Source of the DNA: Betaproteobacteria bacterium
GTDB lineage: Bacteria > Pseudomonadota > Gammaproteobacteria > Burkholderiales > SG8-41
DNA length: 64,000 nt
Direction: 5' to 3'
Assembly (NCBI GenBank): GCA_016192825.1
Contig: JACPTK010000053.1
Span: forward strand, 2,173 to 66,172
This document shows, piece by piece, positions 18,591 through 36,529 of this stretch; positions within the stretch are counted from its first letter, which is position 1, and every line of letters begins with the position of its first letter. The position numbers and the translations under genes were made by a program. Under the pieces are notes generated by a model. That model saw only the letters and a program-made list of their open reading frames with translations. It was not told where the DNA came from and searched no databases.

Positions 18591-18595
18591 CTAAC
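18591..18595. repeat. Target-site duplication CTAAC (left copy)
   Basis: CTAAC directly abuts the TG terminus at 18596. An identical pentamer abuts the CA terminus at 32303-32307. Confidence 0.85.
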
Positions 18596-18773
18596 TGAAG
18601 GGGAGCACCTGGTTTGCAAACTGCGGGAAGTGGTCGGGCTATTCGGGAAGATTCCGGATAGAGGGATGGGAATCAAGGGGTTGCGGCAACGGGTGGCGGG
18701 CGAAAACAGCGGATCAGCATGATTGCAAATTTCCCCGAAAACGGCCGCCGGGATCAGCTAGTTTGCAAATTCG
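18596..18773 (+). repeat. Left-end transposase-binding-type repeats (three sites)
   Basis: Site 1 is TGAAGGGGAGCACCTGGTTTGCAAAC (18596-). Site 2 is GGATCAGCATGATTGCAAAT (about 18711-18730). Site 3 is GGATCAGCTAGTTTGCAAATTCG (about 18751-18773). Confidence 0.75.
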
Positions 18774-18855
18774 GCGCGCGGCTACAGCTACCAGATAACA
18801 GACTGATACGGCGAAATTAAGGGGCTAATAATGGCCGGGGAAAGCGGCCCTGGGA

Positions 18856-18888
18856 GGTCCGCAATCAATGCCCGATTGCGGACCTTTT
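18856..18888 (+). terminator. Hairpin plus T-run inside the left arm
   Basis: GGTCCGCAATC-aatgccc-GATTGCGGACC-TTTT. A second hairpin, GGACCCCC-ggtgcct-GGGGGTCC, follows at 18891-18913. GGTCCGCAAT recurs at 18909. Confidence 0.45.
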
Positions 18889-19034
18889 GAGGACCCCCGG
18901 TGCCTGGGGGTCCGCAATGCTCAAAACGTACGCAGCTGTAGTGGATGTGCGTACGCAGCAAATAGGTGTAGGTCGAGCCGCCATCCAATATGGCGCGCCT
19001 CGGGTCGGTGATCCCGACGTCCCTGCCTACGCGG

Positions 19035-19280
19035 CTAGTCGATGTAGCGCAGGTAGGCGGCGGCGCGGGTGAGCCCGTCGTGGAGGGTGATCGCCTGGTC
19101 CTTGCCGAGCGCGAAGGCCCGCTCCCCGCCTCTCGGGTCGGCGAGCCTGAGGTAGATCAAGGGCTCACCGGAAAAGGAACTGACAATGACCTCGAAGGTC
19201 GTCTTCGGGGCGTACGGGTCGGGCTTTCCATTCTGGCCGACCGGGGAGAGTATCTCCAGAACATAGGATGTCGTCGCCAT
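19035..19280 (-). CDS. Small hypothetical protein (left-arm accessory ORF)
   Basis: ORF 19035..19352 trimmed to ATG 19280 (MATTSYVLEIL...), with GGAGAT 5 nt upstream. Confidence 0.5.
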   Translation of the reverse strand: MATTSYVLEILSPVGQNGKPDPYAPKTTFEVIVSSFSGEPLIYLRLADPRGGERAFALGKDQAITLHDGLTRAAAYLRYID

Positions 19281-19447
19281 GCTGATCTCCTCGCCGGGAC
19301 GCCAGACAGCCGGTTGAGCGGCCATTCTATTCCCAAATAGCGGAAGCCCCACACGGCGCGGAAATTAGCCCGGCCGGTCGTTGGTGATAGCAGATCGGAG
19401 TAAGAAGGCGGAGGCGGCAGCGCCGCCCCGCCTGGTGCGGCACAGAC

Positions 19448-19636
19448 TTACTCTCCGCCCTCCAGCTGCGCGAGGCGACCGCAGAGCGATTGCAGCTCGC
19501 GGCGCACGTCGGTGATGAGGGGCGGGATGCGCGACTTGTGCTGCTGCGGGTCGCCGATGCTGAGCGCCAGGCGCTCGATGCGCCGCAGCTTCGCATCGAC
19601 GCCGACCACGACGTTGATGATCAGGTCGCGGTTCAT
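19448..19636 (-). CDS. Small hypothetical protein (left-arm accessory ORF)
   Basis: 62 aa. Its ATG overlaps the stop of the upstream ORF (ATGA). Confidence 0.45.
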   Translation of the reverse strand: MNRDLIINVVVGVDAKLRRIERLALSIGDPQQHKSRIPPLITDVRRELQSLCGRLAQLEGGE

Positions 19637-19914
19637 GCGGCCGCCTCGCGGTCCCTCCCCAGCATGCGGCCGTGTGCGTCCAGCAGCGTCTCGCGAGCCG
19701 CCTCGATCTCATCATGCATCATGCCGAATACCACCTGGAAAGACTCGGCTGGCAGTTCATCAAGTTGCCACGGCTTCTCGTGCGCAGTGACATTCCCAGC
19801 GAGAGCGCTCATGAGCTTACACAGATGACCGACCTGATACAGGCGGTAATCGGCGGACTCGATCTGCGTGAAGGTGGCGTTGCCGAGAACGGGCGTGGGG
19901 GTGTTGCTGACCAT
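19633..19914 (-). CDS. Small hypothetical protein (left-arm accessory ORF)
   Basis: ORF 19633..20031 trimmed to ATG 19914 (MVSNTPTPVLG...), preceded by GGAGG. Confidence 0.5.
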   Translation of the reverse strand: MVSNTPTPVLGNATFTQIESADYRLYQVGHLCKLMSALAGNVTAHEKPWQLDELPAESFQVVFGMMHDEIEAARETLLDAHGRMLGRDREAAA

Positions 19915-20141
19915 GAGGGCCTCCAAGAGTTTAGAGAGGCCACCACCAATGCGAGGTGGCCGGGCGCACTCTCGGCCTCTTGGAAGCCGCGTCGAGCCTT
20001 CCCCTTGCGGGTCTTTTATAGCTCGTCTCAACCCCGGCCAGTAAGGGACGAAAAAAAGCCGCTGCTGACGGGGCGGACAACCGCCAAGAGTTTCGAGAGG
20101 AGTTCAGAATACAGCGGACGGCGGGCGGGGTCAAACTACCG

Positions 20142-20327
20142 CTAGGGCATCGAGCGCTTCAGCGCATCGCACTCGCCCCTGAGGAGCTTGGTTTGGCATT
20201 CGCTGCAGAGGTCGAGCGGATCGGTGGCGGCGCGTTCTTTTCGCTCTTCGTATTCGTCTGTCGGCCAGGCTTGGCAGTTCTGGCAGAAGTGCCATTGGTA
20301 GGTGTTGATCCGCCTCCTGTAAATCAC
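20142..20327 (-). CDS. Small zinc-ribbon protein (CxxC...CxxC)
   Basis: 61 aa with FCQNCQ and CSECQ pairs. It lies immediately downstream of the repressor gene and runs the same way. Confidence 0.5.
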   Translation of the reverse strand: MIYRRRINTYQWHFCQNCQAWPTDEYEERKERAATDPLDLCSECQTKLLRGECDALKRSMP

Positions 20328-20345
20328 CCCGCCCTCACGCAGCGA

Positions 20346-20972
20346 TCACGGCAATGCGGCCTTGACGGTCATCGCGACGATCTTCTTGTCGGCGTGCGCG
20401 GGTCCTTTGAATACATCATAGAGCGAGAGAATCAATTTAGCCTTCTTAACCGGAGGCAGCGACTTGCTCAGCGCGCGAAGTGTGTCATTGACCGCGGAGA
20501 AAATTTCCTCGAGGAGGTTGCCATTCTCTAATAGAGCGTCGATCAAATCCTCAACGTGTTCGTACTCAACAATCGTTCCTCGCGGCATCGACGACGCGAC
20601 CCGGTTAGTTCGGTAATTCAAAACCTCGTCTTCCACGACCAAATCTATCAGGCCATACAGCGCCTCCGCATTTATTCCAAATCGCTTGGCGATTGGATTC
20701 AAGACGCGATGAGTACCTAGCCCGAAAAGATTTCGAGGCGTGGAAGCTTCCGCGAACAGGACAAATCCGGCGTCGCCGCCGGCCTCTGCAAATGCTCTTA
20801 GATATTCCCCGTCAGGGCGGCGCTTTCCCGTCTCATAGTTGACCTGCGTCCCCCTGGTAATTCCCAGCTTCCGAGCAAGGGTCGCCTGTGTGAGCCCGAG
20901 CCTTTTCCTCTCAGTCTGAATGCGCGCCCCCCGCTGTTTGTCAACATTCGATGACATGGTATACAATCGCAT
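20346..20972 (-). CDS. Phage repressor, XRE-family HTH (Mu c-like position)
   Basis: 208 aa. The HTH is RLGLTQATLARKLGITRGTQVNYETGKR. It is divergent from ner/A/B across a 45-bp spacer. Start is either 20972 or 20957. Confidence 0.75.
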   Translation of the reverse strand: MRLYTMSSNVDKQRGARIQTERKRLGLTQATLARKLGITRGTQVNYETGKRRPDGEYLRAFAEAGGDAGFVLFAEASTPRNLFGLGTHRVLNPIAKRFGINAEALYGLIDLVVEDEVLNYRTNRVASSMPRGTIVEYEHVEDLIDALLENGNLLEEIFSAVNDTLRALSKSLPPVKKAKLILSLYDVFKGPAHADKKIVAMTVKAALP

Positions 20973-21017
20973 ACACTACGCTTTTGAAATTGAGGAATCG
21001 TAACAGGAGGTGATCGG

Positions 21018-21227
21018 ATGGCAAAGAAAGTGGGCCCCAGGAGCGCGGAGGATGTGCGCCGCGAATTCGAGCGGAAGGGAACGAGCATCGCGGAATGGGC
21101 GCGCGAGCACGGCGTATCCAGCCAGCTCGTTAGCGGTGTCCTCAGCGGGCGCATTCGTGGGCGGATCGGGCGCAGCCACCGCATTGCGGTTTTGCTCGGC
21201 ATGAAAGACGGGGAAATCGCTAGCTGA
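21018..21227 (+). CDS. ner: Ner-like DNA-binding protein
   Basis: 69 aa with AGGAGG upstream. The HTH is GTSIAEWAREHGVSSQLVSGVL. It sits between the repressor and the transposase, as in Mu. Confidence 0.65.
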   Translation: MAKKVGPRSAEDVRREFERKGTSIAEWAREHGVSSQLVSGVLSGRIRGRIGRSHRIAVLLGMKDGEIAS

Positions 21228-21228
21228 C

Positions 21229-23280
21229 ATGACGACCATCCAAAACAAGAAGCGCGAAACAGCGCTCGTTCGCAAGCTGGGGGACTCAGCGCAGCCTGGC
21301 GCCCGCTGGATTCCAATCGCCGTTTTCTCGCAACTCGCCGGCATCACAAAGCGCGTCGCTCGAAAGATCGCACGACGAACCACCTGGCGCGGCGCCCAGC
21401 TGCAAGTTCGCAAGGTACCCGGCCGGGGCGGCGCGAGCGGCATGCTGCACGAAGTCCTCATCTCATCGCTGCCGCCTGCGTTGCAGGTCAAATGGCACAA
21501 GCTGCAGCAGCCAGCCAGTCTGCCGGCCGGCGTGGAGGAGCAGCTCGCGGAACTCAGAGAAAAATACTCCCCGGCCGAGCCCCGTCCCTGGACACAGGAG
21601 GAGCGCGAGGCGCGGCACGCGGCGCATTCACGGCTGCCGACATCCGTTCAGCTGAGGGGAAAGCGCCGGTTCCAGGCGGTGATCCTGTTTGACTCGCTCA
21701 GCGCGATCGGCTCGCCAGCCGCCGAGCGCTACGCAGTAGCGGCGAAAGAGGCGGGCGTTTCGCCGGACAGCGTGCGCCGCTGGGTGGAATTGTGCCGCGG
21801 CCTCGATCGAGGCGACTGGATAGTGGCGCTCGCGCCAAGGCACCGGGACCGGGAGCTGACAGCGCAAGCACCGTTTGATCAGGAGGCGCTCGAATATATT
21901 TGGACCGAGTATTTCCGCCTCACAAAACCGAACTTAAAGGCCGTTTGTCGGCGCGCGGTTCGATTCGGCAAAGAGCGCGGATGGGCGATCCCCTCTTACA
22001 CCACCGTGAAGCGCCGCGTTAATGCCGAGCCGCACCCCTTCCGCGTCTTGATGCGCGAAGGACAAGAGGCTTTCGAGAAGCTCTACCCCACGCAGCAGCG
22101 CGACTACAGCACGCTGCGCTTGCACGAAATTTGGTGCTGTGACGGAAGGCGCGCCGACGTTTTCTGCCGCTGGGAGGATGGGACGGTCAGCCGGCCTATC
22201 GTGATCACCTGGCAAGAGGTGCGCAGCAGGGTGATCCTCGCGTATCTAGTCGCTCGCACGGAGAGCGCGGACTCAATCCGGCTCGCCTTCAAAGACGCCG
22301 CGGAAAAGTATCGCGTGATCCCCGCGCACGCGTTGCTCGATAATTCGAGGGCGTTCGGCTCGAAGCTCTTGACGGGCGGCGCGCCCAATCGCTTCCGCTT
22401 CAAGGTGCGCGAAGAGGAACTCCCCGGAATTCTCACCCAGATGGGAATCGGGGTGATCTGGACGCTGCCCTTTGCCGGGCGCAGCAAGCCGATCGAGAGC
22501 TTTCACCGGCAATACGCTGAAGCCGAGAAGCGCCTCGCCGGGGCTTATTGCGGCAACCGTCCCGACGCTCGCCCCGAAGATTTTGATGAGGCGAAGGCGG
22601 TGCCGATCGAACAATACCGCAAGCTCATCGAGGAAACGCTCGCCGAATACCACGCCCGAGCGCATCGCGGCGACTCGATGGAGGGGCGCAGCCCGCGCGA
22701 AGTGTACGAGGCGCTGCTACCGCAATGCGCGCCCCGCCAGCCGTCCCGCGATCAGCTCAGGCTTTGCCTTCTTGCGGCGGACAGCGTCAAACTCGATCCG
22801 GACACCGGCGCGGTGCGGCTCCTGGGGAACCGCTACTGGTGCGAGAAGCTCGCCCAGCAGCCCCGTGATCGCGCATACGTCGTGCGGTTCAATCCGCAGG
22901 ATCTGACCGAAGAGGTGGCGATCTACGACGGCGAGCGCTTCGTTTGCGAGGCGCCGATCATCGCGCGCACGGGCTTCAAGGATTCGCAGTCCGCCAGGAA
23001 CGAGCAGCGCGCGAGGCGGCAATTCTTGAAGAGCCAGAAGCGGCAGGTTGTCGCCCGCGGTGACATGAGCAAGGCGCGCGCATGGATCACGCCGCCGGAC
23101 GTTTCTGACGCCCTGCAGGCTGAAGTCGAGAAAGCGGTGCTGCCCGCGCCGAAAGTCGTTACACCGCTGCGTCCGGTTCGAGACTATCGCCCCGAAAAAC
23201 CGGAGGAGCCGATCATCTCGAAAGACGATTTCCTGCAGATCATCCTCGATCACGACCAGCGCCGCGCCGGCGAAGGATAA
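21229..23280 (+). CDS. Mu-type DDE transposase (A protein)
   Basis: 683 aa. The candidate DDE triad is WCCDGRRADV / LLDNSRAFG / KPIESFHRQ. The size and the position upstream of an AAA+ partner fit an A protein. Confidence 0.85.
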   Translation: MTTIQNKKRETALVRKLGDSAQPGARWIPIAVFSQLAGITKRVARKIARRTTWRGAQLQVRKVPGRGGASGMLHEVLISSLPPALQVKWHKLQQPASLPAGVEEQLAELREKYSPAEPRPWTQEEREARHAAHSRLPTSVQLRGKRRFQAVILFDSLSAIGSPAAERYAVAAKEAGVSPDSVRRWVELCRGLDRGDWIVALAPRHRDRELTAQAPFDQEALEYIWTEYFRLTKPNLKAVCRRAVRFGKERGWAIPSYTTVKRRVNAEPHPFRVLMREGQEAFEKLYPTQQRDYSTLRLHEIWCCDGRRADVFCRWEDGTVSRPIVITWQEVRSRVILAYLVARTESADSIRLAFKDAAEKYRVIPAHALLDNSRAFGSKLLTGGAPNRFRFKVREEELPGILTQMGIGVIWTLPFAGRSKPIESFHRQYAEAEKRLAGAYCGNRPDARPEDFDEAKAVPIEQYRKLIEETLAEYHARAHRGDSMEGRSPREVYEALLPQCAPRQPSRDQLRLCLLAADSVKLDPDTGAVRLLGNRYWCEKLAQQPRDRAYVVRFNPQDLTEEVAIYDGERFVCEAPIIARTGFKDSQSARNEQRARRQFLKSQKRQVVARGDMSKARAWITPPDVSDALQAEVEKAVLPAPKVVTPLRPVRDYRPEKPEEPIISKDDFLQIILDHDQRRAGEG

Positions 23281-23285
23281 CAACA

Positions 23286-24095
23286 ATGACCGCCATCAAA
23301 CGCTTGCACGAGGTTTCCATCGAGGACGCCGCGCCGGCTCCAATCAAGACCGCCGCCGCCGATGGGCCAGCGCCCGCGTGGGTCGAGACCCCGACCTCCA
23401 AGAAAATCTATCAGGCGATCTTGCATGCACAGACCACGCCCACGCTCGTGCTGATCTACGGTGCGCCGGGGGTTTCAAAGACGACGACGGCGGCCCGTTA
23501 CGTGGAAGAGCGCGACCCGCGCTGGCATGAGCGCGGCGCCTATCACATCAATCTGCTGGGCGTGAAGTCCTCGGCCTCGATGCTCCAGACGATTCACGCG
23601 GTGATCCGCACGCCCAGGTATATCGACGCCTACCGTAACGTGACGCTGATGCGCTCGCTCGCCAATTGCCTCGAGCCGGGATCGTTGCTGATTCTCGATG
23701 AGGCGCAATCGCTGCGCCCGGACGCGCTCGACGCCGTGCGGTTTTTTCTCGACGAGCGGGACGTCGGCCTCGTTCTGATGGGCAACGAGATCGTGTACGG
23801 CGCCATTGCCAGCAAGAGCGCGCGGGCACATTTCGCGCAGCTGAGCAGCCGCATCGGCCTCAAGCTCCACCTTCCGCATCCCACCGAAGCCGATGCAGAC
23901 GCGGTTCTCAAGGCTTGGGGCGTGACTGATGACGCCGGGCGCGAATACGGCCGGAAGATCGCGCTCGGGCCGGGCGGCCTGCGGCAACTTGCCCAGCTGC
24001 TAAGGCACGCACGGACTGCGGCTGCCGCGACGAGGCGGTCATTGGATCACCGGCTGATGCACGCCGCGGCCAGCGCCTTGGGATTAATCGAGTGA
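23286..24095 (+). CDS. Transposition ATPase (MuB/TniB-like AAA+)
   Basis: 269 aa. Walker A is GAPGVSKTT and Walker B is LLILDEAQ. Confidence 0.8.
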
Positions 24096-24096
24096 A

Positions 24097-24648
24097 ATGC
24101 GCGTGAGGCATACCTGGAGATCTGCTAAGGCCCGACCCGTGGCCAGGGCGATGGAAACGCTAATCGCTGTTTCGCCTGAGACCGTACGCCAGATCAGACA
24201 GCAATACGGTGAAGATGTCGCGCTGATTAGCGCCGCAATGGAATGCCTCGCGGCGCGCTTCCGAGAAAAAGGCGCAGCGCTGTCCTCGCCGAGCGCCGTG
24301 CGAGATTACCTTCGGTTGTTACTTACGCCGCTGCAGCATGAAGTGTTCATGGGGATATTTGTTGACGCGCAGAACCACGTGCTGGCGGTGGAGGAGTTAT
24401 TCCGCGGCACCCTTACCAAGACCAGCGTCTACCCGCGCGAGGTGGTGAAGCGCGCGCTCCAACACAACGCCGCCGCGCTGATCTTTGCCCACAACCACCC
24501 CTCGGGCACCGCGGAGCCGAGCGGGTCCGACGTGGTCCTGACCCGGACCCTTCAGCAAGCGCTTGCGCTGGTGGACGTCAAGGTGCTTGATCACTTCGTC
24601 ATCGGCGCACGGGCGGCGACATCATTAGTTGAGCGCGGGTTATTTTGA
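24097..24648 (+). CDS. RadC-like JAB-domain protein
   Basis: [16 protein letters not shown] is the JAMM/RadC signature. The start could be ATG 24151. Confidence 0.75.
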
Positions 24649-24667
24649 AACGGCAAGTCTCGAAGGC

Positions 24668-25117
24668 ATGGGTAATCTCGGCGCAATAATCTCCAAGGAG
24701 CGCAAGGCGGTGATCCACGTCGCGAAGGCGCAACTCGCCATGACGGACGAGGATTACCGCGCGCTCCTGGCGCGCGTGGCAGGCGTCAGCTCGTCGGCCG
24801 ATCTCGATGACCCCGGCTTCGAGGCAGTGATGGCTGAGTTCGAGCGGCTGGGATTCCGGTCGGCGAAACACCGCGCGCCGGCTGGGCAACGCGAGGGCAT
24901 GGCAACACCCGCCCAGGTCGGCAGGATCCGGGCGCTGTGGAAGGCATACACGGGTGACTATGACGAGCCAGGCTTGGAACGCTGGCTCGAAGTTCACCTC
25001 CACGCATCGAGCCTGCGATTTCTCGATGCGTGGCGCGCCGGCAAAGCGGTTGCGATTCTTGAGGGCATGGTTGCCAAGAAGCGCGCGAAGGCCGGGACAG
25101 GAGAATCGCTGTCATGA
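24668..25117 (+). CDS. gemA: Mu gp16/GemA-like (DUF1018-type) regulatory protein
   Basis: ORF 24629..25117 trimmed to ATG 24668. KAVIHVAKAQLAMTDEDYRALL...ATPAQVGRIRALW resembles the GemA family, and the position is Mu-like. Confidence 0.55.
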   Translation: MGNLGAIISKERKAVIHVAKAQLAMTDEDYRALLARVAGVSSSADLDDPGFEAVMAEFERLGFRSAKHRAPAGQREGMATPAQVGRIRALWKAYTGDYDEPGLERWLEVHLHASSLRFLDAWRAGKAVAILEGMVAKKRAKAGTGESLS

Positions 25118-25404
25118 AACGCCGAGCGGGTCCGGTCGAGATCACCGCCGCCAAGTGGCGCCGGCTTCATTTGCTAGGCAACCCGCCGAGAATCGCGGGC
25201 GACCCGGAGGTGCGGGAATTCCTGAAGAAGGCGCTGCGCACCATGTCGTTCAAACGGGCGGCCGAGGCATGCGGGCAGCGATTCGGCGCCAGGGCGCCGG
25301 GAAAGTCCGCGATTCATCGCTACTGGAAAAAGTACTGGCAAGAACCCCGCCAGAATCGCGCTGGGGTGGCCTGCGCCGGCCGGGTCGCTACCACCCTACG
25401 CTAA
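25114..25404 (+). CDS. Hypothetical early-region protein
   Basis: 96 aa with an ATGA overlap onto the gemA-like gene. Confidence 0.45.
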   Translation: MKRRAGPVEITAAKWRRLHLLGNPPRIAGDPEVREFLKKALRTMSFKRAAEACGQRFGARAPGKSAIHRYWKKYWQEPRQNRAGVACAGRVATTLR

Positions 25405-25587
25405 AAACCAACCCCCCTCTAAAGACCCTCTCAAAAACGCTCCTAGTGGCCTTCTTGAGGCGATTTTCGTGAAAAGGACCCCTCAAAAAGCCGGAGGCCC
25501 GACGCTATTAGCGGCCCACCATGCCGTTGGAGCCGGGCTCGACGGCCGGGGTTGGGATGTCCAGGGCACCGGGACCCCTGTTAAGCG

Positions 25588-25611
25588 CCTGTTAACTGCG
25601 TTTTTAACAGG
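25588..25611. promoter_or_regulatory. Perfect dyad CCTGTTAA-N8-TTAACAGG upstream of the mor-like gene
   Basis: Read directly. An extra CCTGTTAAG copy lies at 25577-25585. The dyad is 40 bp upstream of ATG 25651. Confidence 0.35.
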
Positions 25612-25650
25612 CATCCCAGAGGCCGGAACACCCCACATAGGCTGCTCGCA

Positions 25651-25995
25651 ATGACTCTCCCCCCCGTACAGCAGGGCGCCGGCCGGTCCGGACGCTACCC
25701 CGAAATCCTGGCGAGCCTGGCGGAAACCGTGACCGAGATACTGATCCGCAAAGGCATCGAACCCGAGATCGCGCGCTCGACCGGCGAGGAAACTGTCGAG
25801 CACGTGCGCAAGCGCTTCGGCGGCGAGCTGGTCTACATCCCGATGGGCCTCGGCTACGATCTCGATCAGCGCAACCGAGAAATCCGCCGCCGGCTCGCCG
25901 CGGGCGAGCCGCGCGATGAAGTCCGCCGCGAGTTCAATCTCTCCGACACGACGATGCGGCGAATCGAAAACGGCGACGCGCCGCGTCGCCGCTGA
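25651..25995 (+). CDS. mor: Mor-family transcription activator
   Basis: 114 aa. It has FGGELVYIPMG plus a C-terminal HTH (EFNLSDTTMRRI), which is the Mor pattern. Confidence 0.7.
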   Translation: MTLPPVQQGAGRSGRYPEILASLAETVTEILIRKGIEPEIARSTGEETVEHVRKRFGGELVYIPMGLGYDLDQRNREIRRRLAAGEPRDEVRREFNLSDTTMRRIENGDAPRRR

Positions 25996-26210
25996 TCTAT
26001 AACGTACGTTGAAAGACTTGGCGGCCTCTCACCGCTAGCATCGTCCCCGGTGTTGCGTACAGGAAGTGAGGGGCCAGGTGGTGGGACGGGTCGGCGCTTT
26101 TCCGGACGGAGGGCCGCACCCGAGTCCCGTCAAGCCGCTGATTTCGTCCCACCTCTTGGCCCTTTCCTTCATGAACGCCGACAAGCGAAGACTTCGAGCG
26201 AGGTAAGAAC

Positions 26211-26942
26211 ATGAGCGCCGCCGGAACACTCAAGCGATTGGCCGCAGCTGTCTTTGGAGGGGCAGGAGACTCACCGATTCCGCAGGGGCTGGCGAGCCTG
26301 CCGAGCCTGATCACCGCGCAGAAAACCATCGCCCAGATCCGCAAGGTGATGGATGAACGCAGCCGCCTCTTCGCGCTGAGAGATCAGGAGCTGGAAAAAC
26401 TCGACTCGCTCGGCCGCCGCGCGAGCGAACTCGACGCCGCGCGGGTTGAAGCGCTCACCGAGCATCGCGTCAGCGCCGACTCCGCGGCGGGCGAGAAAGC
26501 TGGCGGGCTCCTCAAGCAGGTCGCCGAGATTCGGCAGGAAATGAACGACGCGGATGCCGTCGCGGCGCGTCTGGACAAGCGCGCGAAGGAGCTCGACATC
26601 GAGATCGAGCCGCTCAAGCGGATGTATCAGGGCGATCTTGGGCTCTTCCTGTGCGAAGTCTACGGGCGCCTGTCGGAGCACTACGAGAAACACGCCAGGG
26701 AAGCGGGCGAGGCGGTCGTCACAATCGCCGCGCTGCACCGGGTGATGATGCGGTACCAGACGGGGAACAGCAACGGCTGGGACGGCAGCCTGCAGCTGCC
26801 CAGCATCGTCCCCGGCCAGGGCAACACGATCCCGCCGCTCTTCGCGGCTGGTTCCTCGAATTTCAGTCGGGCCGCGAGCGAGCGCATGGAGGAGATCATC
26901 GAACAGATGCGGGCCGCCGGGTTCATCTGGAAATTCGATTGA
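26211..26942 (+). CDS. Coiled-coil protein, possible head scaffold
   Basis: 243 aa with a long charged helical stretch. It lies immediately upstream of the capsid-like gene. The functional call rests on position only. Confidence 0.4.
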   Translation: MSAAGTLKRLAAAVFGGAGDSPIPQGLASLPSLITAQKTIAQIRKVMDERSRLFALRDQELEKLDSLGRRASELDAARVEALTEHRVSADSAAGEKAGGLLKQVAEIRQEMNDADAVAARLDKRAKELDIEIEPLKRMYQGDLGLFLCEVYGRLSEHYEKHAREAGEAVVTIAALHRVMMRYQTGNSNGWDGSLQLPSIVPGQGNTIPPLFAAGSSNFSRAASERMEEIIEQMRAAGFIWKFD

Positions 26943-26974
26943 CCCGCGCCGCGTTTACCCCGGAGATAGTGCAG

Positions 26975-28015
26975 ATGCCAAACGTGCCCTGCAAAGCAGC
27001 TGTGTTGCTAGATCGATTCTTTTCGCGCGAGGGGGGAGTACGATCATTCCGCGAGTGCTACATCGAGATTACCGGCGACAAGCGGCTCACCGGCCGTATC
27101 GAGAACTGCGACCTCGTGAGGATGCGCGAGTCGCTCGACACTGACCTCTGGTCCAACGTGTTCGCGAACTCGGTCAACCGGCGCATGGTGGCGGAGTACC
27201 GGCGCGGCGGCGTGTACTCCGTATGGCGGAAGCTGGTGAAGATCGCCGGCAACGTGAATGATTTCCGCACCCAGGAGCGGGTGCGCTATGGCGGCTATGG
27301 CGCATTGCCCACGGTGAACCAGGGCGCGGCCTATCTCGCGCTTCCCTCGCCGCCCGGCGAGAAGGCGTCGTACGCCGTCAGCAAGCGCGGCGGTATCGAA
27401 TCTCTCACGCTGGAGATGGTCAAGAACGACGACGTGCAGGCGATTCGCGCGATCCCGACGCGCCTGTCGGAAGCGGCGCAGCGCACGCTCAACGATTTCG
27501 TGATGGACTTCCTCCGGACTAACCCAGTGATCTATGACGGCGTGGCCCTCTTTGACGCCGCGCACGGCAACCTCGGCAACGCAGCTCTCTCGGCGGTCGG
27601 GATGGAGGGCGCGCGCACCGCAATGCGCAAGCAGACGGAACTCGGCAGCGGTCAGCGGCTGCGCATTACCCCGCGTTTCTTGTGGGTGCCGTTGGACCAG
27701 GAGGAAACCGGCTTCAATATCTTTCGGCGAGGCACCAACAACGACAAAACCTTCGTTCAAAGCATGGACGTTGAGGTCGTTCCGGTGCTGGACTGGACCG
27801 ATACCAACGACTGGTGCGCCTCGGCCGATCCGGAGAGCTGTCCCACGATCGAGCTTGCTTTCCTCGACGGGCAAGAAGAACCGGAACTCTTCATGCAGGA
27901 TCATCCGAGCGCCGGCTCGCTGTTCTCGCACGATCAGGTGACCATGAAGATCCGCCACATCTACGGCGGCGCCGTCGTAGACTATCGCGGGCTCTATAAG
28001 TCGGTCGTCGTGTAG
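26975..28015 (+). CDS. Major capsid-like protein (HK97-fold type)
   Basis: ORF 26651..28015 trimmed to ATG 26975, with GGAGAT 7 nt upstream. It is 346 aa. ALFDAAHGNL...RFLWVPLDQEE...DWCASADP...IELAFLDGQEEPELF follows the pattern I associate with Mu gpT-like and other major head proteins. Confidence 0.55.
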   Translation: MPNVPCKAAVLLDRFFSREGGVRSFRECYIEITGDKRLTGRIENCDLVRMRESLDTDLWSNVFANSVNRRMVAEYRRGGVYSVWRKLVKIAGNVNDFRTQERVRYGGYGALPTVNQGAAYLALPSPPGEKASYAVSKRGGIESLTLEMVKNDDVQAIRAIPTRLSEAAQRTLNDFVMDFLRTNPVIYDGVALFDAAHGNLGNAALSAVGMEGARTAMRKQTELGSGQRLRITPRFLWVPLDQEETGFNIFRRGTNNDKTFVQSMDVEVVPVLDWTDTNDWCASADPESCPTIELAFLDGQEEPELFMQDHPSAGSLFSHDQVTMKIRHIYGGAVVDYRGLYKSVVV

Positions 28016-28037
28016 GCGGCGGCTCCTACAGGCCCTC

Positions 28038-31000
28038 GTGAACGAAATCGTCCTCGGAATCCGCCTCACCGCCGACGGCAAGGCCGTCGTCACCGAGGTG
28101 CGCGCAGCGACCGAGGAAGTCAAGAAGCTCGGCCAGGCGGCGGGCCGGTCGAACGCCCAGGCCGCGGCCGAGGGCGAGAAGTTCACCGGGTCGCTCAAGC
28201 GCCAGGCCGACACGCTCGGCATGACGAAGTCGCAGACGCTCGCCTACGAAGCCTCGCAGCATCAGCTGACCACCGCGCAGAAGGAGTCGGTCGCGCAGTC
28301 GATCCGCGCGATCGGCGCGCACGAACAACATCAGATGGTGCTCGGCCGCGTCAAGGTCGCGGCGGCTGCCGCCGGCGCGGCGGTCACGGCGATGGCGATC
28401 GGTGGCTTGAAGGCGATGATCACCGAGACCGCGCGCGCCGAGCAGGCGAATCTCAAGCTCGAGGCGGTGCTGCGCGCGACCGGCAACGCGGCGGGATTTA
28501 CCAAGGCGCAGCTCGACGCAGAGGCCGAGTCCCTCAAACGCAGCACCGGCTTCGACGACGACCAGGTGCGCGCCAGCATGGCGGTGATGCTGACCTTCAA
28601 GCAGATCACCGGCGACACCTTCAGTGAATCCATGAGGATGGCCGCGGACCTGTCCCGGCTCCTCGGCCAGGATCTGCAAAGCTCGGTACTTCAGCTCGGC
28701 AAGGCGCTCGAGAATCCGGAGACAGGCTTGACCATGCTGAGCCGCTCCGGCGTCTCGTTCAACGATACTCAAAAGGAAACGATCAAACGCCTGGTTGACG
28801 TTGGCCGCCAGGCCGAGGCCCTGACGCTCATTCTCCAGACCATGAAACACCAAGGCATCGATCGAGTAGCCGAGAGCATGAACGTGGGCCTTACGGCGGC
28901 GATGCGCAATGCGGGGCTCGCATGGGACGACCTGCTCAAGGAGATCGGGAAAACCCCGCAAGTAAGGGGTCCCGTGGAGGCCACCTTTAACCACATCGAG
29001 AAGGTGCTGCTCAAGACCAAGGATCTCGTCGAACAGCCGTGGACCGAGCGGCTCAAGATCATCATGAGCGGCGGCCTTTACAGCGGCGCGCCGCCGGCGC
29101 GGGGGGAGTACGTCGGCGGCACCGAGGGGCGGCTCGCGCGCGAAGGCGCGCAGCGCCAGGCCGAAGAGCAGGCGCGCGCGCAGGCGCGCGCGGGGCTGGC
29201 TTCGTTCATGACGCCGTTCCAGGGCGAGGAGCAGAAGATGCTCATCGCGATGCGGGATTTTCTGGCGCGGTCCGAAGGTGCCGGGCTCTCGGATGACGAA
29301 GTGCAGCGTGGCATCCGGACGATCCGCTCGAAATTCATGGGCAAGGAAGAAGCGTCCGCGGCAATGCGCGCGGCGGAGGAGCTGCGCAATCTCTACGATC
29401 AGCTCGACAACACCGGCACGACGGTCAACGCGGCATTCCGCAAGCAGCTCGGGATGCTGCACGGCGAATACGAGAAAGGCGGCATGACGCTGGAGGTCTA
29501 TCAGGCCCGCGTCACGGAGCTCATCAACCGGACCGGTTTTGCTACGAAGCTCAAGGAGCAAGAGAAGGTCGCGCTCGACGCCTATCTCAAGTCCGAAGAA
29601 TTCCACGCGGATGTCATGAGGGAGATCAACGAGCTGACCGCGCAGCAGGGCAAGCTCCGCGCGGAGGCGCTTCGCGGCAGCCAGGGGGCGGCGGATCTCG
29701 CGCGCGACGAGCAGCAAATCGCCGAGCGCGAGCTATCCCTCATGGGTGCGAGCGTGCGCGAGCGTACCGCGGTAATCGAACAGTTAAAGGCGGAGCAGCA
29801 AGTGCGGCGCCAAATCGAGGACCTCAAGAATAAAGGGGTCTACCTCGATGAGACCGATCAGGAACACATGATGCAAAAAGCCCGGGAGGCCGCCGCGGCG
29901 AGGGCACGCACCGGGGAAATCCGCGAGACGCAGCAGGCGTGGCAGCGCACCGCGGACAACATCGAGCGCTCGCTCACCGATGCGCTCATGCGCGGCTTCG
30001 AGCGCGGCGAGAACATCGCTCAGAATTTCTGGCACAGCGTCAGAAACATATTTTTGACGCAGGCGTTGCAGATCCCGGTGCGCTTCGTCGCCGGGACGAT
30101 GGCGAGCGCGATCGGCTCGCTCGGCATCCCCGGCCTGGCGAACGCCGGCGGCGGCGCTTCCAGTCTGCTCGGCATGGGGAACCTGGTCTCCGGCGCTGGC
30201 GCGTTATCGAAGCTCGGGTTCGGGTTTGGCCAGACGATGGCTGACTTCGGCAACTTCTTCGGCTCGATCGGCTCGCTCACCGAGTCCGGCGCCACCTTCG
30301 GCCTGATGGACGCGATTGGCGGCTTCGCGGCGGCGAACCCGGTCACCGCCGCGCTGATGGTGGCGGGGCTCGCGCTCGGCGGGTCGAGCCTGCTCGGCAA
30401 CAAGCGGCCTTCGGCGCAGCTCACCGGCCGCCAGCTCTCGGGAAACGTCGCCGGCTACGGCGGCCTCAACGCCGCGCCCGACTTGACCTTCAACACCGGT
30501 TTCACGCCGGCCTCGGCCGGCTGGGAATACATGGGCGGGCTGTTCCAGACCGAGATCCGCGCGCTCTACGACCAGGTCGCGCAGCTCGGGCAGACGCTCG
30601 GGCGCGACACCAGCGGGCTGCGCGGTTTCACCGCGAGCGTCAGCACGCCTAAATTCCTGGACTACTCGGAGATCCTCGGCACGACGCTCCAGCAGATCAG
30701 CGACCAGCTCGCGACACAGTTGCTGCCCGACCTGCAGGACCTGGCCAAGGCCGGCGAGAGCGCCACGCAAACGCTGGTGCGGCTCGCGAACGAGGCCCAG
30801 CAGCAGCGGCTGGGCGAGATTTTCGGGCGCATGGGCGCAGCGGTGCAGCTCCAGGATGCGACGCGCGACCTGTGGCTCTCCGATCTGTCGCCGCTCACGG
30901 CGCGCCAGCGCCTCGATGCCTCGAACGCGCGCTACAGCGAGCTGCTCGGCCTGGCGCGCGGCGGCGATATCGGCGCCTATCAGGAGCTGCAGGGGTTCGT

Positions 31001-31385
31001 GCGCGGCAACCTGGAGGAGAACCGCGGCTACTACGCCGGCGCGAGCCCGGAGTACGTCGCGACGTTCCGGCAGCGCATGGAGGAGATTCAGGACCTCACT
31101 AGCAACACGATCACCGAGCAGTCCATCCAATTCGCGGAGCTGGGGCTTACAATGCGGAGCATCGATACAAGGCTCGCCAATATGGATCAGCGCATCGAGC
31201 AAGCGCTCGAAAGGGCGGTAGGGGCCCGCCTGGATGCGCTGCGCGCGACGGCGGAAGCGGGGAACGACCAGATCACCGACGCGATCGTGAGCACCCCGAT
31301 CGCCGTGGCCAACAACGCCGCGGGCGCCAGCGGGGCGCTGTTCCTCGACGACAGCACGATCGATCCGACCTACATGACCGACTAA
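28038..31385 (+). CDS. Tail tape-measure protein
   Basis: 1115 aa with a GTG start. It has coiled-coil N and C parts and the core LGKALENPETGLTMLSRSGVSFNDTQKETIKRLV, which is typical of tape-measure proteins. A Gly-rich hydrophobic segment follows (about 30090-30420). Confidence 0.75.
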   Translation: MNEIVLGIRLTADGKAVVTEVRAATEEVKKLGQAAGRSNAQAAAEGEKFTGSLKRQADTLGMTKSQTLAYEASQHQLTTAQKESVAQSIRAIGAHEQHQMVLGRVKVAAAAAGAAVTAMAIGGLKAMITETARAEQANLKLEAVLRATGNAAGFTKAQLDAEAESLKRSTGFDDDQVRASMAVMLTFKQITGDTFSESMRMAADLSRLLGQDLQSSVLQLGKALENPETGLTMLSRSGVSFNDTQKETIKRLVDVGRQAEALTLILQTMKHQGIDRVAESMNVGLTAAMRNAGLAWDDLLKEIGKTPQVRGPVEATFNHIEKVLLKTKDLVEQPWTERLKIIMSGGLYSGAPPARGEYVGGTEGRLAREGAQRQAEEQARAQARAGLASFMTPFQGEEQKMLIAMRDFLARSEGAGLSDDEVQRGIRTIRSKFMGKEEASAAMRAAEELRNLYDQLDNTGTTVNAAFRKQLGMLHGEYEKGGMTLEVYQARVTELINRTGFATKLKEQEKVALDAYLKSEEFHADVMREINELTAQQGKLRAEALRGSQGAADLARDEQQIAERELSLMGASVRERTAVIEQLKAEQQVRRQIEDLKNKGVYLDETDQEHMMQKAREAAAARARTGEIRETQQAWQRTADNIERSLTDALMRGFERGENIAQNFWHSVRNIFLTQALQIPVRFVAGTMASAIGSLGIPGLANAGGGASSLLGMGNLVSGAGALSKLGFGFGQTMADFGNFFGSIGSLTESGATFGLMDAIGGFAAANPVTAALMVAGLALGGSSLLGNKRPSAQLTGRQLSGNVAGYGGLNAAPDLTFNTGFTPASAGWEYMGGLFQTEIRALYDQVAQLGQTLGRDTSGLRGFTASVSTPKFLDYSEILGTTLQQISDQLATQLLPDLQDLAKAGESATQTLVRLANEAQQQRLGEIFGRMGAAVQLQDATRDLWLSDLSPLTARQRLDASNARYSELLGLARGGDIGAYQELQGFVRGNLEENRGYYAGASPEYVATFRQRMEEIQDLTSNTITEQSIQFAELGLTMRSIDTRLANMDQRIEQALERAVGARLDALRATAEAGNDQITDAIVSTPIAVANNAAGASGALFLDDSTIDPTYMTD

Positions 31386-31406
31386 CAACTAGAGACGCGA
31401 ACTACT

Positions 31407-31730
31407 ATGCAGGACCTCGCAAAGGCAGTTGAACAATGCAAAGTTCTGCTGAGGCAGATTGACGAGCAAGTGAAGGTGCTCGTCGGGCTGAAGGAACTGG
31501 AGGCGCTCTTCTCGCTGAAGGAGCGAGACCCGTCGATCTTGAGCGGGGTTGACGGCATATTGAAGGAGCTGCGGGAGATGAAGCTCCGCGTTAGCGGGGC
31601 TGTGAAAGTTTTCAGCGCGGTACCCGGCGCGATCGAGGACATCAATCAGGCGCTGTTGCTGTTTACTCGCGCGAAGGATTTCGCGGAGACGGTCGCGCAG
31701 CGCCGCAAGCGCGCCGGGGGCCAAGGCTGA
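31407..31730 (+). CDS. Hypothetical protein
   Basis: 107 aa, helical. No motif recognised. Confidence 0.4.
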   Translation: MQDLAKAVEQCKVLLRQIDEQVKVLVGLKELEALFSLKERDPSILSGVDGILKELREMKLRVSGAVKVFSAVPGAIEDINQALLLFTRAKDFAETVAQRRKRAGGQG

Positions 31731-31735
31731 CAGCG

Positions 31736-32086
31736 ATGGCTGGCCCCGCGCTTGAATACACCGGCTTTCTCCCTGAACTGGCGGACAAACTAATCGCATT
31801 TCTTATTGCGGCGGGCTGGTCGCGCGAGCGCGCCGAGGCGCTTGCACGAGCGCTCGTTGACAGCATGAGGCGCAATTGGGGCGGCACTCAGGTCTACATT
31901 CCATCGCAACGACCGATCGACAGATTGCTTCGCGATGCAGAGATCGCGCGCAGATGGAACGGGCGTAACACACTCGAGTTGTGCCGCGAGTTCGGGATCA
32001 GCGACGAGCGGGTGCGGCAGATCTATGACGAAGCGCGACGCAAGGCCAAATCGGTTTCAGCCGGGGCCCAGGCGGCGCGTAAATAA
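31736..32086 (+). CDS. Second Mor/C-family activator paralog
   Basis: 116 aa. WGGTQVYIPS plus ELCREFGISDERVRQIY fit the Mor/C family. It is the last gene before the right end. Confidence 0.65.
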   Translation: MAGPALEYTGFLPELADKLIAFLIAAGWSRERAEALARALVDSMRRNWGGTQVYIPSQRPIDRLLRDAEIARRWNGRNTLELCREFGISDERVRQIYDEARRKAKSVSAGAQAARK

Positions 32087-32252
32087 GCGTTAACGGCCCA
32101 TTAAATTCCGGGCTGTTGCGCCGCAACAAATCCCTTTCTTTCACCCCGATGGCGACACGTCGAGAAGGGCGCGAAAGGCATCAAAGAGGCCGCCCGATTG
32201 CGGCAATGAAAAAACGACGTATCCTCCGAGAATCAATCGTTTAGCCGATTTC

Positions 32253-32302
32253 GAATTTGCAAATTACCTGATCCGGATTTGCAAATTGGGTGATCCCCGT
32301 CA
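32253..32302 (-). repeat. Right-end transposase-binding-type repeats (two sites)
   Basis: The reverse complement reads TGACGGGGATCACCCAATTTGCAAATCC and then GGATCAGGTAATTTGCAAATTCGA. Both match the left-end sites. Confidence 0.8.
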
Positions 32303-32307
32303 CTAAC
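32303..32307. repeat. Target-site duplication CTAAC (right copy)
   Basis: Identical to 18591-18595 and directly abutting the CA terminus. Confidence 0.85.
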
Positions 32308-32310
32308 CTG

Positions 32311-32338
32311 TTGTCTTTGCGGGCTCTTGTCGGTATTA

Positions 32339-32339
<1 letters not shown>
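32311..32339 (+). promoter_or_regulatory. Sigma70-type groESL promoter
   Basis: TTGTCT, a 17-nt spacer, then TATTAT, immediately followed by CIRCE. Confidence 0.55.
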
Positions 32340-34373
<2,034 letters not shown>

Positions 34374-35244: not shown

Positions 35245-35320
<76 letters not shown>

Positions 35321-36031: not shown

Positions 36032-36529
36032 GTGCGAATCCAGGAGCTGGGGAGCGAGATCCGGAGGGCCCGTCAGGCGCGAGGGCTGACGCAGGCGCAA
36101 CTCGCCCGCGCAGCAGGGGTTTCCCGCGAGACTCTCAACCTGCTGGAGAGCGGCCTTGTGCGGGACTTGGGCATCCGGAAGGTGTTTGCCGTGCTTGAGC
36201 ACCTCGGGCTGAGCGTGACGCTGCAGCAGGGAATGCGACCCGGCCGGCCGGACTACGTGCGCATGGCGTGCACGACCGCGAGCGTGAGTTTCAAGAGTGC
36301 GCTCACGGAAAAGGAGCTGATCCACGCTCTCGTGACGGGCAAGGTCCCCGCAAAGCGGGCCCCGCATTTGCGGACACTGCTCGAGGAGGCACCGGCGCCC
36401 TTGCTGCAAAGGCTGGCGGAGGAAGCGGCCGGATGGACGAAGCCCGGAAAACTGGAGAAGAACCTGCGCAAACTGGCAAGCGACTTGGGCGTGTCGCGGA
36501 GCGTCGAGAGATGGCTGAGGATCGGCTGA
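36032..36529 (+). CDS. XRE-family HTH protein, putative antitoxin
   Basis: 165 aa. The HTH is GLTQAQLARAAGVSRETLNLLESG. It overlaps the downstream nucleotidyltransferase gene by 19 nt. Confidence 0.7.
   Translation: MRIQELGSEIRRARQARGLTQAQLARAAGVSRETLNLLESGLVRDLGIRKVFAVLEHLGLSVTLQQGMRPGRPDYVRMACTTASVSFKSALTEKELIHALVTGKVPAKRAPHLRTLLEEAPAPLLQRLAEEAAGWTKPGKLEKNLRKLASDLGVSRSVERWLRIG

Follow-up and report, generated by a model that had tools for sequence, protein, structure and literature searches.

A reduced Mu-like element from a lineage that probably directs its transposition to the CIRCE operator

Phage Mu serves as the standard example of near-random transposition; its Mu B protein is described as a non-specific target-capture protein. 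Here, we report a compact Mu-like element at positions 18596–32302 (13,707 bp) of a 64,000-nucleotide stretch of a betaproteobacterial genome (Betaproteobacteria bacterium, assembly GCA_016192825.1, contig JACPTK010000053.1; the whole stretch is called the window). The element lies directly upstream of the chaperonin operon groESL and its CIRCE (controlling inverted repeat of chaperone expression) operator. Comparison among loci shows that the lineage to which the element belongs has inserted many separate times next to CIRCE, and that its location at groESL is no coincidence. We consider it probable, overall, that the window carries a reduced Mu-like element, one that probably depends on a helper, and that transposition in its lineage is directed by CIRCE and specific in orientation. 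An earlier sequence-only reading of this DNA had treated the groESL-promoter location as incidental. That part of it gives way: the lineage has repeatedly inserted at the same distance from CIRCE and in the same orientation, at groESL and once at rpoH.

Repeated insertion beside CIRCE

The lineage is defined here by the terminus TGAAGGGGAGCA together with A proteins (Mu A-type transposases) that are 51–66% identical. All of its CIRCE-adjacent loci except L172 were found by A-protein homology and not by position. Eleven separate lineage junctions adjoin CIRCE, ten at groESL and one at rpoH, and eight of them were read directly. Specifically, the interval from the 5-bp target-site duplication (TSD) to CIRCE is 29 bp in locus L007 (TSD GGGGG), 30 bp in L220 (no matching TSD), 31 bp in the window (CTAAC), 32 bp in L004 (TCAGC), L094 (TCAGG), and L302 (left end off the contig), 33 bp at the rpoH site of L214 (GAGTT), and 44 bp in L009 (no matching TSD). 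For the other three, all at groESL and with no TSD available, the interval was inferred from the left flank: 32 bp in L215, ~35 bp in L093, and ~41 bp in L172. Nine junctions fall 29–35 bp from CIRCE, i.e., within 7 bp of each other. The chance of eight of nine events landing in one 5-bp window is ~4e-10, even granting a common 200-bp spacer, and it is negligible genome-wide.

Orientation is equally regular. The right, Mor-proximal end points toward CIRCE in all eight directly read junctions, and this holds across two internal gene arrangements, that of the window element and that of L007, in which the early block is inverted. The five complete junctions possess perfect TSDs whose sequences differ between loci (CTAAC, TCAGC, GGGGG, TCAGG, and GAGTT). 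Duplications that are perfect within loci and different between them exclude both one inherited insertion and simple allelic transfer.

The rpoH junction reveals which landmark is constant. In L214, the site lies between ftsYEX and an rpoH-like sigma factor gene. The TSD–CIRCE interval there contains no groES-like sigma-70 promoter, and a sigma-E-like GGAACT-N16-TCCAA, seen by eye, overlaps CIRCE. We considered the sigma-70 −35 hexamer as the landmark and rejected it because the rpoH junction keeps its distance to CIRCE with no such promoter at that spacing. Thus, it is CIRCE, rather than the −35 hexamer, that serves as the constant landmark.

Traces of still other insertions exist at the same target. 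In one host lineage, a solo right-end remnant (~100 bp) of an older element is fixed immediately before the groESL promoter: it occurs in L197, which is otherwise empty, in L009 (~7030–7094), and in L220 (~2180–2280), and its position at the same target shows that an earlier insertion took place there. The newer elements in L009 and L220 abut this remnant. Their missing TSDs could reflect small adjacent deletions or slippage in GCC repeats.

All elements located 29–33 or 44 bp from CIRCE carry a Mor-family gene at, or close to, their CIRCE-proximal end, and L216, a relative that is not at CIRCE, has no Mor gene. In this small sample, a right-end-proximal Mor paralogue correlates with CIRCE-adjacent insertion. 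Among 80 distant Mu-like loci (A ≤42% identical), none has groES or groEL within 10 kb. Near-random insertion is a Mu-phage trait, whereas here we count eleven CIRCE-adjacent junctions versus one elsewhere. The pattern found, insertion at a fixed distance and in a single orientation at a conserved landmark, is the trait of Tn7 and Tn5053. Non-random, CIRCE-linked targeting is, in our judgment, highly probable.

Element ends, target duplication, and empty sites

The element has imperfect inverted ends of the TG...CA type. Its left terminus, TGAAGGGGAGCACCTGGTTTGCAAA, begins at 18596, and its right terminus ends ...GGTGATCCCCGTCA at 32302; as inverted repeats, the two are identical at 20 of 25 positions. 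The left terminus (TGAAGGGGAGCA..., 18596–18621, plus strand) carries the terminal A-site-like repeat L1, and the same 12 nt are found in L007, L009, L214, L220, L172, and L100. Two subterminal repeats, L2 (18712–18730) and L3 (18752–18770), also on the plus strand, match GATCAG-N4-WTTGCAAAT with 0 mismatches each. The right terminus (...CCCCGTCA, 32255–32302, minus strand) carries two contiguous repeats, R2 (32255–32273) and R1 (32277–32295), and the tail of the right arm reads ...TTTGCAAATTGGGTGATCCCCGTCA, its last base being 32302. The repeats, putative binding sites for A, are therefore spaced in a set of three on the left and contiguous in a set of two on the right, in opposite orientations. 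GATCA-N5-WTTGCAAAT occurs five times in the window, exclusively in the arms (18603, 18712, and 18752 on the plus strand; 32255 and 32277 on the minus strand). Shuffling gives a chance expectation of 0.27 per window, and 0 of 100 shuffles reach five. The octamer TTTGCAAA, similarly, occurs four times, in the arms only, versus 0.41 expected.

One copy of the pentamer CTAAC abuts each end (18591–18595 and 32303–32307). The earlier claims regarding this duplication, the TG...CA ends, their 20/25 match, and the arm repeats are all borne out. Beyond the left end lies a host open reading frame (ORF) that is conserved beside empty sites, beyond the right end lie groES and groEL, and nothing phage-related exists on either side.

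The element landed 3 bp upstream of the groESL −35 hexamer. Its right end and CIRCE are 36 bp apart, or 31 bp when counted from the TSD. Insertion left the promoter (TTGTCT-17-TATTAT, 32311–32339), the CIRCE operator that overlaps it (TTAGCACTC-N9-GAGTGCCAG, 32339–32365), and the groESL operon (groES 32413–32706, Pfam Cpn10; groEL 32736–34373) intact, all on the plus strand. The window CIRCE has two mismatches to the canonical TTAGCACTC-N9-GAGTGCTAA, and those of L004, L007, L094, L214, L302, and L126 have none. By tblastn, groES and groEL are 82–100% identical to those of relatives.

To survey empty sites, the host 213-aa neighbor gene was used as the query, yielding 80 species-level relatives, all of them metagenome-assembled genomes of uncultured Burkholderiales/Betaproteobacteria. 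In 68 of the 80, groES lies within 150–730 bp of the 213-aa ORF, and four more contigs end inside an empty site, making ~72 of 80 empty. One relative is occupied by a Mu-like element (L172), and five have differing synteny with no groES nearby. In an alignment of 18 empty sites, the sequence is ...G CTAAC CT(R)TTGTCT..., and a single CTAAC immediately precedes the groESL −35, −10, and CIRCE (for example, GTCGCTAACCTGTTGTCTTAGCG in L175). Thus, the duplication is a genuine TSD and the insertion is derived, not ancestral. The empty junction predicted by the sequence-only reading exists in relatives in this form, seen by aligning diverged empty sites; the exact 31-mer has no match in reference genomes. 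These data show that the element entered the groESL site by Mu-type DDE transposition, which created the 5-bp CTAAC duplication. We regard the identity of the element and its TSD as practically certain.

The same reading called the insertion recent, which is not supported, and possibly mobile. Mobility is plausible given intact catalytic residues, ends, and ORFs, but all six contigs with an identical A protein are occupied at the same site.

A compact gene set that cannot build particles alone

We scanned every element ORF with Pfam and PHROGs. The 683-aa A protein (21229–23280, plus strand) is a Mu A-type DDE transposase (Pfam DDE_2, HTH_Tnp_Mu_2, and Mu-transpos_C; phrog_310, 1e-106). It matches the Mu transpososome structure (PDB 4fcy, E=1.3e-63), with D305/D371/E423 aligned to Mu A D269/D336/E392, and these catalytic residues are invariant across 33 homologues. 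The 269-aa B protein (23286–24095, plus strand) is a Mu B-type AAA+ target-capture ATPase (Pfam AAA_22 and Phage-MuB_C). It aligns to Mu B residues 65–282 (PDB 8xvb, 8.6e-22), possesses Walker A (GAPGVSKT) and Walker B (LLILDEA) motifs, and lacks the N-terminal domain of Mu B (~60 residues). The proposed MuA/MuB assignment of these two ORFs is thus verified by Pfam, PHROG, and PDB comparisons, and the A, B, and 1115-aa ORFs are open, as had been stated.

The structural genes form a short run on the plus strand. A 243-aa charged helical protein with no family match (26211–26942) is encoded just upstream of a stand-alone major capsid protein of 346 aa (26975–28015), an HK97-type Phage_capsid_4 member (Pfam 2.7e-45). 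Homologues of the 243-aa ORF (41%) immediately precede the capsid gene in L212, L215, L216, and the fuller phage L314, and from its gene position we infer a scaffold. We also considered the 243-aa ORF as the N-terminal part of a protease-scaffold-capsid fusion, an idea rejected because there is no similarity. The nearest isolated phage with this capsid type is Microcystis phage Mae-JY22: the capsid protein is 53% identical to residues 421–769 of its 771-aa protease-scaffold-capsid fusion. Only 22 bp after the capsid gene begins a gene for a tape-measure-like protein of 1115 aa (28038–31385; Pfam TMP_2 31.6 bits, cut-off 30.2; PHROG tape-measure families down to 7.5e-23). In L314, by comparison, ~7 kb of neck and tail genes fill the capsid–tape-measure gap, and in Mae-JY22 ~3.5 kb of genes do so. 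A 107-aa ORF with no family match follows (31407–31730).

Across all element ORFs, Pfam and PHROGs detected no large terminase, portal, neck, tail tube or sheath, baseplate, or lysis gene. Lacking terminase, portal, tail, and lysis genes in its 13.7 kb, the element cannot build particles alone. The full virion and lysis module of a complete transposable phage is absent, and the element belongs to the Mu family as a compact, non-autonomous form, not as a complete phage genome. The earlier designation of a Mu-type element therefore stands regarding the Mu-family DDE identity and the tape-measure-like ORF, and does not extend to a Mu-type phage genome.

The whole early module, by contrast with this partial structural set, is kept: repressor, Ner, A, B, GemA, and Mor. 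A repressor-like HTH_3 protein of 208 aa (20346–20972, minus strand; Pfam 7.6e-10, PHROG transcriptional regulator/repressor families) is encoded divergently from the Ner-A-B early operon, which opens with a Ner-like small DNA-binding protein of 69 aa (21018–21227, plus strand; phrog_925, 1.1e-23). Downstream of B, all on the plus strand, lie genes for a 183-aa RadC-like JAB-domain protein (24097–24648; Pfam RadC 5.8e-42), a 162-aa homologue of GemA (Mu gp16; 24629–25117; Pfam 7.6e-22), a conserved 96-aa helical protein resembling helix-turn-helix proteins (25114–25404), and a 114-aa Mor-family transcription activator (copy 1; 25651–25995; Pfam Mor 7.1e-17). A second Mor-family activator (copy 2; 116 aa; 31736–32086; Pfam Mor 1e-18) is the last gene of the element and is transcribed toward groES.

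Compact relatives

Metagenomes supplied nearly all of the A-protein homologues at 51–66% identity. The A relatives available from reference genomes, IMG/VR, and isolated phages are all at ≤42%, mostly on 30–44 kb contigs. A scan of genomes with the single A protein gave a best relative at only 33%, and A is ~30–35% identical to that of any isolated phage. No A relative at ≥50% identity was seen as a full-length phage in genome, IMG/VR, or phage collections.

Eight elements are delimited, meaning that the contig is long enough to show both ends, and they range from 11,941 to 15,555 bp: the window element at 13,707, L004 at 14,011, L007 at 12,798, L009 at 14,166, L094 at 11,941, L214 at 12,723, L220 at 14,303, and L216 at 15,555 bp. 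All eight have intact ends, A, and B, are densely coding, and show no pseudogene debris. ORF clustering of 12 elements places A, B, and the 96-aa ORF in 12/12, Ner and GemA in 11/12 each, and Mor in nearly all. The 96-aa protein is the sole uncharacterized one common to all 12. A tape-measure-like protein (467–1538 aa) is encoded in every delimited element of the lineage with the TGAAGGG terminus, and not in the more distant L126.

The remaining cargo varies. Some elements carry the 243-aa protein with the capsid, and others a ~246-aa family; Portal_Mu, a gpD/gp44-type hub, a Mu gp27-like protein, and a protease fragment are optional additions. The gp27-like protein, which is small-terminase-like, is present in L009, L220, and L172. 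Gene order is not collinear: the tape-measure gene precedes the capsid gene in L215, and the portal gene follows the tape-measure gene in L004 and L007. In the L007/L094/L214 subgroup, the repressor-A-B-GemA block is inverted relative to the ends.

A fuller relative, L314, has the order GemA, 96-aa ORF, Mor, 246-aa ORF, capsid, Neck1, tail proteins, tail terminator, major tail protein, and tape-measure protein. Its existence suggests that the compact forms probably arose by reduction from siphovirus-type transposable phages. Because each compact form has its own ends and its own target duplication, they appear to have spread as compact units.

A minimal Mu-like element of 8,067 bp is found in L126 (8507–16573), with a perfect TSD (CTTAC), 80 bp, counted after the TSD, upstream of a groESL CIRCE. 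Its A protein is 35% identical to that of the window, and its cargo is limited to early genes, Mor, a gpI-type protease/scaffold, and a gpT-type capsid. A tRNA-like stretch noticed by eye in L126 was not called by ARAGORN. Two left arms, those of L212 (4574–5965) and L215 (2324–3715), carry a gene for a 463-aa DUF7830/DUF6035 protein, and an Hfq-like gene lies between the tape-measure and scaffold genes in L216 and L217 (L216 12294–12530). Finally, the 16,775-bp contig of L303 is palindromic, with two inverted early regions containing Mu A and the same OMP (outer membrane protein) and UbiD genes on both flanks. This arrangement reflects either faulty assembly or an inverted duplication such as replicative transposition generates.

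Alternative explanations

Prophage decay is common, and one might suppose that a full-length Mu-like phage inserted at random and later suffered internal deletions, its groESL location being a coincidence or a consequence of survival at harmless sites. The fuller relatives, which share the Mor-scaffold-capsid order (L314), do make it probable that the compact form arose by reduction, and the CIRCE-proximal terminus of L094, which is ATA and not CA, suggests at least one decaying copy. Yet decay predicts neither at least 11 separate CIRCE-adjacent junctions in fixed orientation, nine of them within 7 bp, nor the convergence of eight delimited elements on 12–15.6 kb with ends, A, and B intact and free of pseudogene debris. 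The genes have been reordered compared with any single ancestor, the searches turned up no close relative of full length, and survival alone cannot give 5-bp precision. We therefore judge this account improbable. Still less credible, to the point of being negligible, is a single ancient insertion upstream of groESL that was inherited vertically in Burkholderiales. The occupied loci share host synteny (aminotransferase, 213-aa ORF, element, and groES), but ~72 of 80 related species are empty, one member resides at rpoH, and the TSDs are perfect at each locus while differing in sequence and position; two ancestral copies would not change together. That the element proteins are more diverged than the host flanks would fit long vertical descent as well. 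Alternatively, the occupied locus, element plus groESL flanks, could have been transferred horizontally by transduction or transformation and homologous recombination. From Mu biology, a helper that packaged a 13-kb element by the headful mechanism would be expected to take up the adjacent groESL DNA as well, and groES and groEL, 82–100% identical between hosts, are good recombination substrates. Recombination, however, would carry the junction and its TSD along, whereas junctions differ by 1–4 bp and TSDs differ, even between closely related hosts (L093 versus L094, and likewise the window versus L215), and the rpoH insertion cannot arise in this manner. Such transfer is very improbable as the general explanation.

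A different proposal accepts targeting and assigns it to DNA structure: the transpososome or B would be attracted to the palindrome, as a cruciform or bend, and selection would supply side and orientation. Such attraction would amount to a stronger form of the REP-adjacent hotspots known from D3112-group phages. Precedent exists in the 2P1/Ab30 hotspots, located 55–61 bp to one side of a 35-bp palindromic motif resembling REP (repetitive extragenic palindromic) sequences (PMC5977238). CIRCE has 9-bp perfect arms, and the outliers at ~41, 44, 51, and 80 bp hint at flexibility in distance. On the other hand, the 2P1/Ab30 hotspots account for ~5% of events and show no orientation bias (PMC5977238), whereas the right end faces CIRCE in 8/8 cases here, and other palindromes in these genomes are evidently unused. 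Targeting by structure, so conceived, is unlikely, if far from fanciful.

Several observations weigh against CIRCE-directed transposition and a satellite lifestyle as we read them. L216, with an A protein 55% identical and a perfect TSD (GCCGC), is inserted upstream of malate synthase, where there is no CIRCE. L009 (44 bp), L172 (~41 bp), and L126 (80 bp) sit further from CIRCE than the rest, and L009 and L220 have no matching TSD. In L218, near a groES CIRCE, it is the other end that appears CIRCE-proximal, although its termini and TSD are not readable. Just one event, that at rpoH, occurred at a CIRCE other than that of groESL; CIRCE upstream of rpoH is known in Geobacter (PMC545781). Nearly all of the evidence derives from metagenome assemblies of uncultured Burkholderiales. 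Across the window ORFs and those of the related elements that were scanned, Pfam gave no TniQ/TnsD-like match that would mark a target selector, though a very divergent selector is possible. The universal 96-aa ORF is not supported as the selector: it is also present in L216, and a model of it has no significant fold match. Moreover, since CIRCE is palindromic, insertion on one side and in one orientation requires an additional source of asymmetry. One-sidedness may come from selection, because insertion downstream of CIRCE would detach an essential operon from its promoter; selection for side does not explain the fixed orientation. Regarding the satellite part, the tape-measure-like protein has no detectable relative in IMG/VR, and no helper phage was found within the 64-kb window.

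Proposed mechanism and lifestyle

We propose that CIRCE steers target capture. In the route we favor, a dimer bound at CIRCE, formed by HrcA of the host or by a protein of the element, would determine where a B-protein filament ends. From there, A and the transpososome would work at a set spacing and polarity, ~36 bp upstream of CIRCE and with the right end proximal. Guidance of this kind would parallel that of Tn7 by TnsD at attTn7 or of Tn5053 by resolvase-bound res sites. Alternatively, within the same CIRCE-directed scheme, the DNA structure of the palindrome could position the transpososome. The protein-guided version has, we estimate, somewhat less than an even chance of being correct. 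The length of the B protein was also considered as a correlate of targeting and was rejected, ORF-start calls being inconsistent.

CIRCE is an operator conserved very widely across many phyla, and groESL is its constant regulon member. Its wide conservation before essential genes would make it a safe, portable landing site in new hosts. We also speculate that an element at groESL could influence chaperonin supply for the folding of HK97-type capsids.

Regarding lifestyle, the elements, at 8–16 kb, would be satellite-like: particles would have to be supplied by a complete relative, for which L314 is a candidate type, and the capsid/scaffold, portal, gp27-like, and tape-measure genes of the elements would serve to redirect assembly. 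Gene content is consistent with this notion: we find an incomplete virion set, regulators, a replication function, and some assembly genes in ~8–18 kb. The combination of 8–16 kb size, full regulatory and transposition modules, partial and variable structural genes, a fixed site, and no terminase, tail tube, or lysis gene comprises the hallmarks of phage satellites. Judged from gene content, a satellite lifestyle is nonetheless a tentative assignment. More tentative still is the joint proposal that a protein–CIRCE complex nucleates or caps the filament of a truncated Mu B-type protein and that the elements are the first transposable-phage-derived satellites, parasitizing complete relatives via their capsid/scaffold, portal, gp27-like, and tape-measure genes.

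If a natural Mu A/B lineage does land at a defined distance and polarity from a transcription-factor operator, Mu machinery is steerable, which would link Mu to the guided insertion of Tn7, Tn5053, and CRISPR-associated transposons (CAST) with no recognizable TniQ/TnsD. It would also provide a compact two-protein system whose landing pad, CIRCE, is nearly universal in bacteria. The findings suggest, furthermore, a satellite-like kind derived from transposable phages that is undescribed and that virus-detection pipelines have seemingly missed, given that IMG/VR holds no close relative. From the host side, all DNA upstream of the groESL −35 hexamer has been replaced by phage-end DNA and a gene for a Mor-type activator. 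Chaperonin expression may thus be coupled to the life cycle of the element.

Comparison with known systems

The window element shares with the Mu family (Mu, D108, and SfMu, and the siphovirus-type D3112 and B3) a DDE A protein with its triad, an AAA+ B protein, TG...CA ends, three left and contiguous right sites, and a 5-bp duplication, along with a repressor divergent from Ner-A-B, GemA, and Mor-family activators. Unlike Mu phages, it is about one third the size, encodes a B protein that lacks the Mu B N-terminal domain, possesses two Mor paralogues, and is inserted in an operator-adjacent, orientation-specific manner. Mu-type phages, for their part, insert near-randomly with a weak 5-bp consensus (PMC5977238). 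The closest likeness among them is found in the REP hotspots of 2P1 and Ab30, where Mu-like machinery prefers a fixed distance on one side of a palindrome (PMC5977238). In that case, the hotspots receive ~5% of replicative events, at 55–61 bp, in both orientations, at many copies of the motif, and the phages are complete Pseudomonas phages (PMC5977238). In ours, nearly all known insertions of the lineage are involved, the end-to-CIRCE distance is ~34–40 bp, there is one orientation, and the motif is a transcription-factor operator.

Tn7 (TnsABC+D) directs its insertion via TnsD-TnsC-TnsB to attTn7, at the 3′ end of a gene, and Tn5053/Tn402 (TniABQ) hunt res sites bound by resolvase. Like these transposons, as generally known, the elements combine a DDE transposase of the Mu A/TnsB/TniA superfamily with an AAA+ protein of the Mu B/TnsC/TniB type, make a 5-bp duplication, insert at a fixed distance from a highly conserved site and in a fixed orientation, and leave the essential genes nearby intact. 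As with Tn5053, the target would be a DNA site occupied by protein. In contrast to Tn7, they have no TnsA and, by Pfam, no TniQ/TnsD, they carry phage regulators and structural genes, and their target is a palindromic operator upstream of a gene.

From general knowledge of satellites, namely P4-like elements, phage-inducible chromosomal islands (PICI, including the Staphylococcus aureus pathogenicity islands, SaPI), and capsid-forming PICI, the likeness lies in the 8–16 kb size, the possession of their own repressor, activators, and replication, a partial morphogenesis set, and a fixed location. The difference is that our elements use Mu-type transposition, presumably also for replication, with no integrase or replicon. 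To our knowledge, a tape-measure-like gene is not a described feature of satellites. Laboratory mini-Mu and Mud derivatives, which keep the Mu ends, A, and B but have lost most of the late genes, transpose and can be packaged by helper Mu. Unlike them, the elements are natural, diversified, and target-specific, and they keep selected structural genes. In all the defining features of the transposition module that were examined, the element belongs to the Mu family. Its behavior resembles that of a Tn7-type targeted transposon and also that of a satellite, yet it does not qualify as a member of either family. In the literature, we found no account of Mu-like elements associated with CIRCE or groESL, of Mu-type transposition targeted in any way other than by hotspots, or of satellites derived from Mu, coverage of subscription journals being incomplete.

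Further features of the elements and the host locus

Four small ORFs occupy the left arm of the window element on the minus strand (19035–20327): 105 aa (19035–19352), 62 aa (19448–19636), 132 aa (19633–20031), and 61 aa with a CxxC...CxxC pattern (20142–20327). None has a Pfam or PHROG match; the 62-aa ORF has homologues in L009, L172, L215, and L220. The RadC/JAB gene lies between B and GemA in the window; L009 and L220 have it on the opposite strand, within the left arm.

The family of the 96-aa protein is rare. An exhaustive search gave ~190 clusters among 1.8 billion representatives, and a word-indexed search only two matches. Its AlphaFold2 (AF2) model has a pLDDT (predicted local distance difference test) score of 78.5, with no significant fold match in the PDB.

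A GC-rich palindrome, GTTGCGCCGCAAC, lies in the right arm (32115–32127), 186 bp from the terminus. Palindromes of the form (C/G)TGCGCCGCA(G/A)C occur 122–186 bp from the right terminus in the window, L004, L009, and L220 elements, against ~0.1 per element by chance, and not in L007-type elements. The palindrome could be a terminator stem or a protein site. An Rfam search of the element returned no RNA family.

At the host locus, some sites scored as empty contain additional DNA. In one host subgroup (L161, L170, L180, L192, and L193), a small gene for a putative secreted or lipoprotein-like product lies between the 213-aa ORF and the groESL promoter, and it accounts for the 650–730-bp spacers of that subgroup. 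In L184, the spacer between the 213-aa ORF and groES is filled, ahead of the groESL promoter, by a ~115-bp unit repeated in tandem ~3.5 times. Outside the element, the window encodes ordinary host metabolism and an AbiEii-family toxin of the type IV toxin-antitoxin/abortive infection class (36268–37149). The toxin gene lies ~1 kb downstream of tRNA-Phe (35245–35320), which is just past groEL, and may be part of a small island at that tRNA gene.

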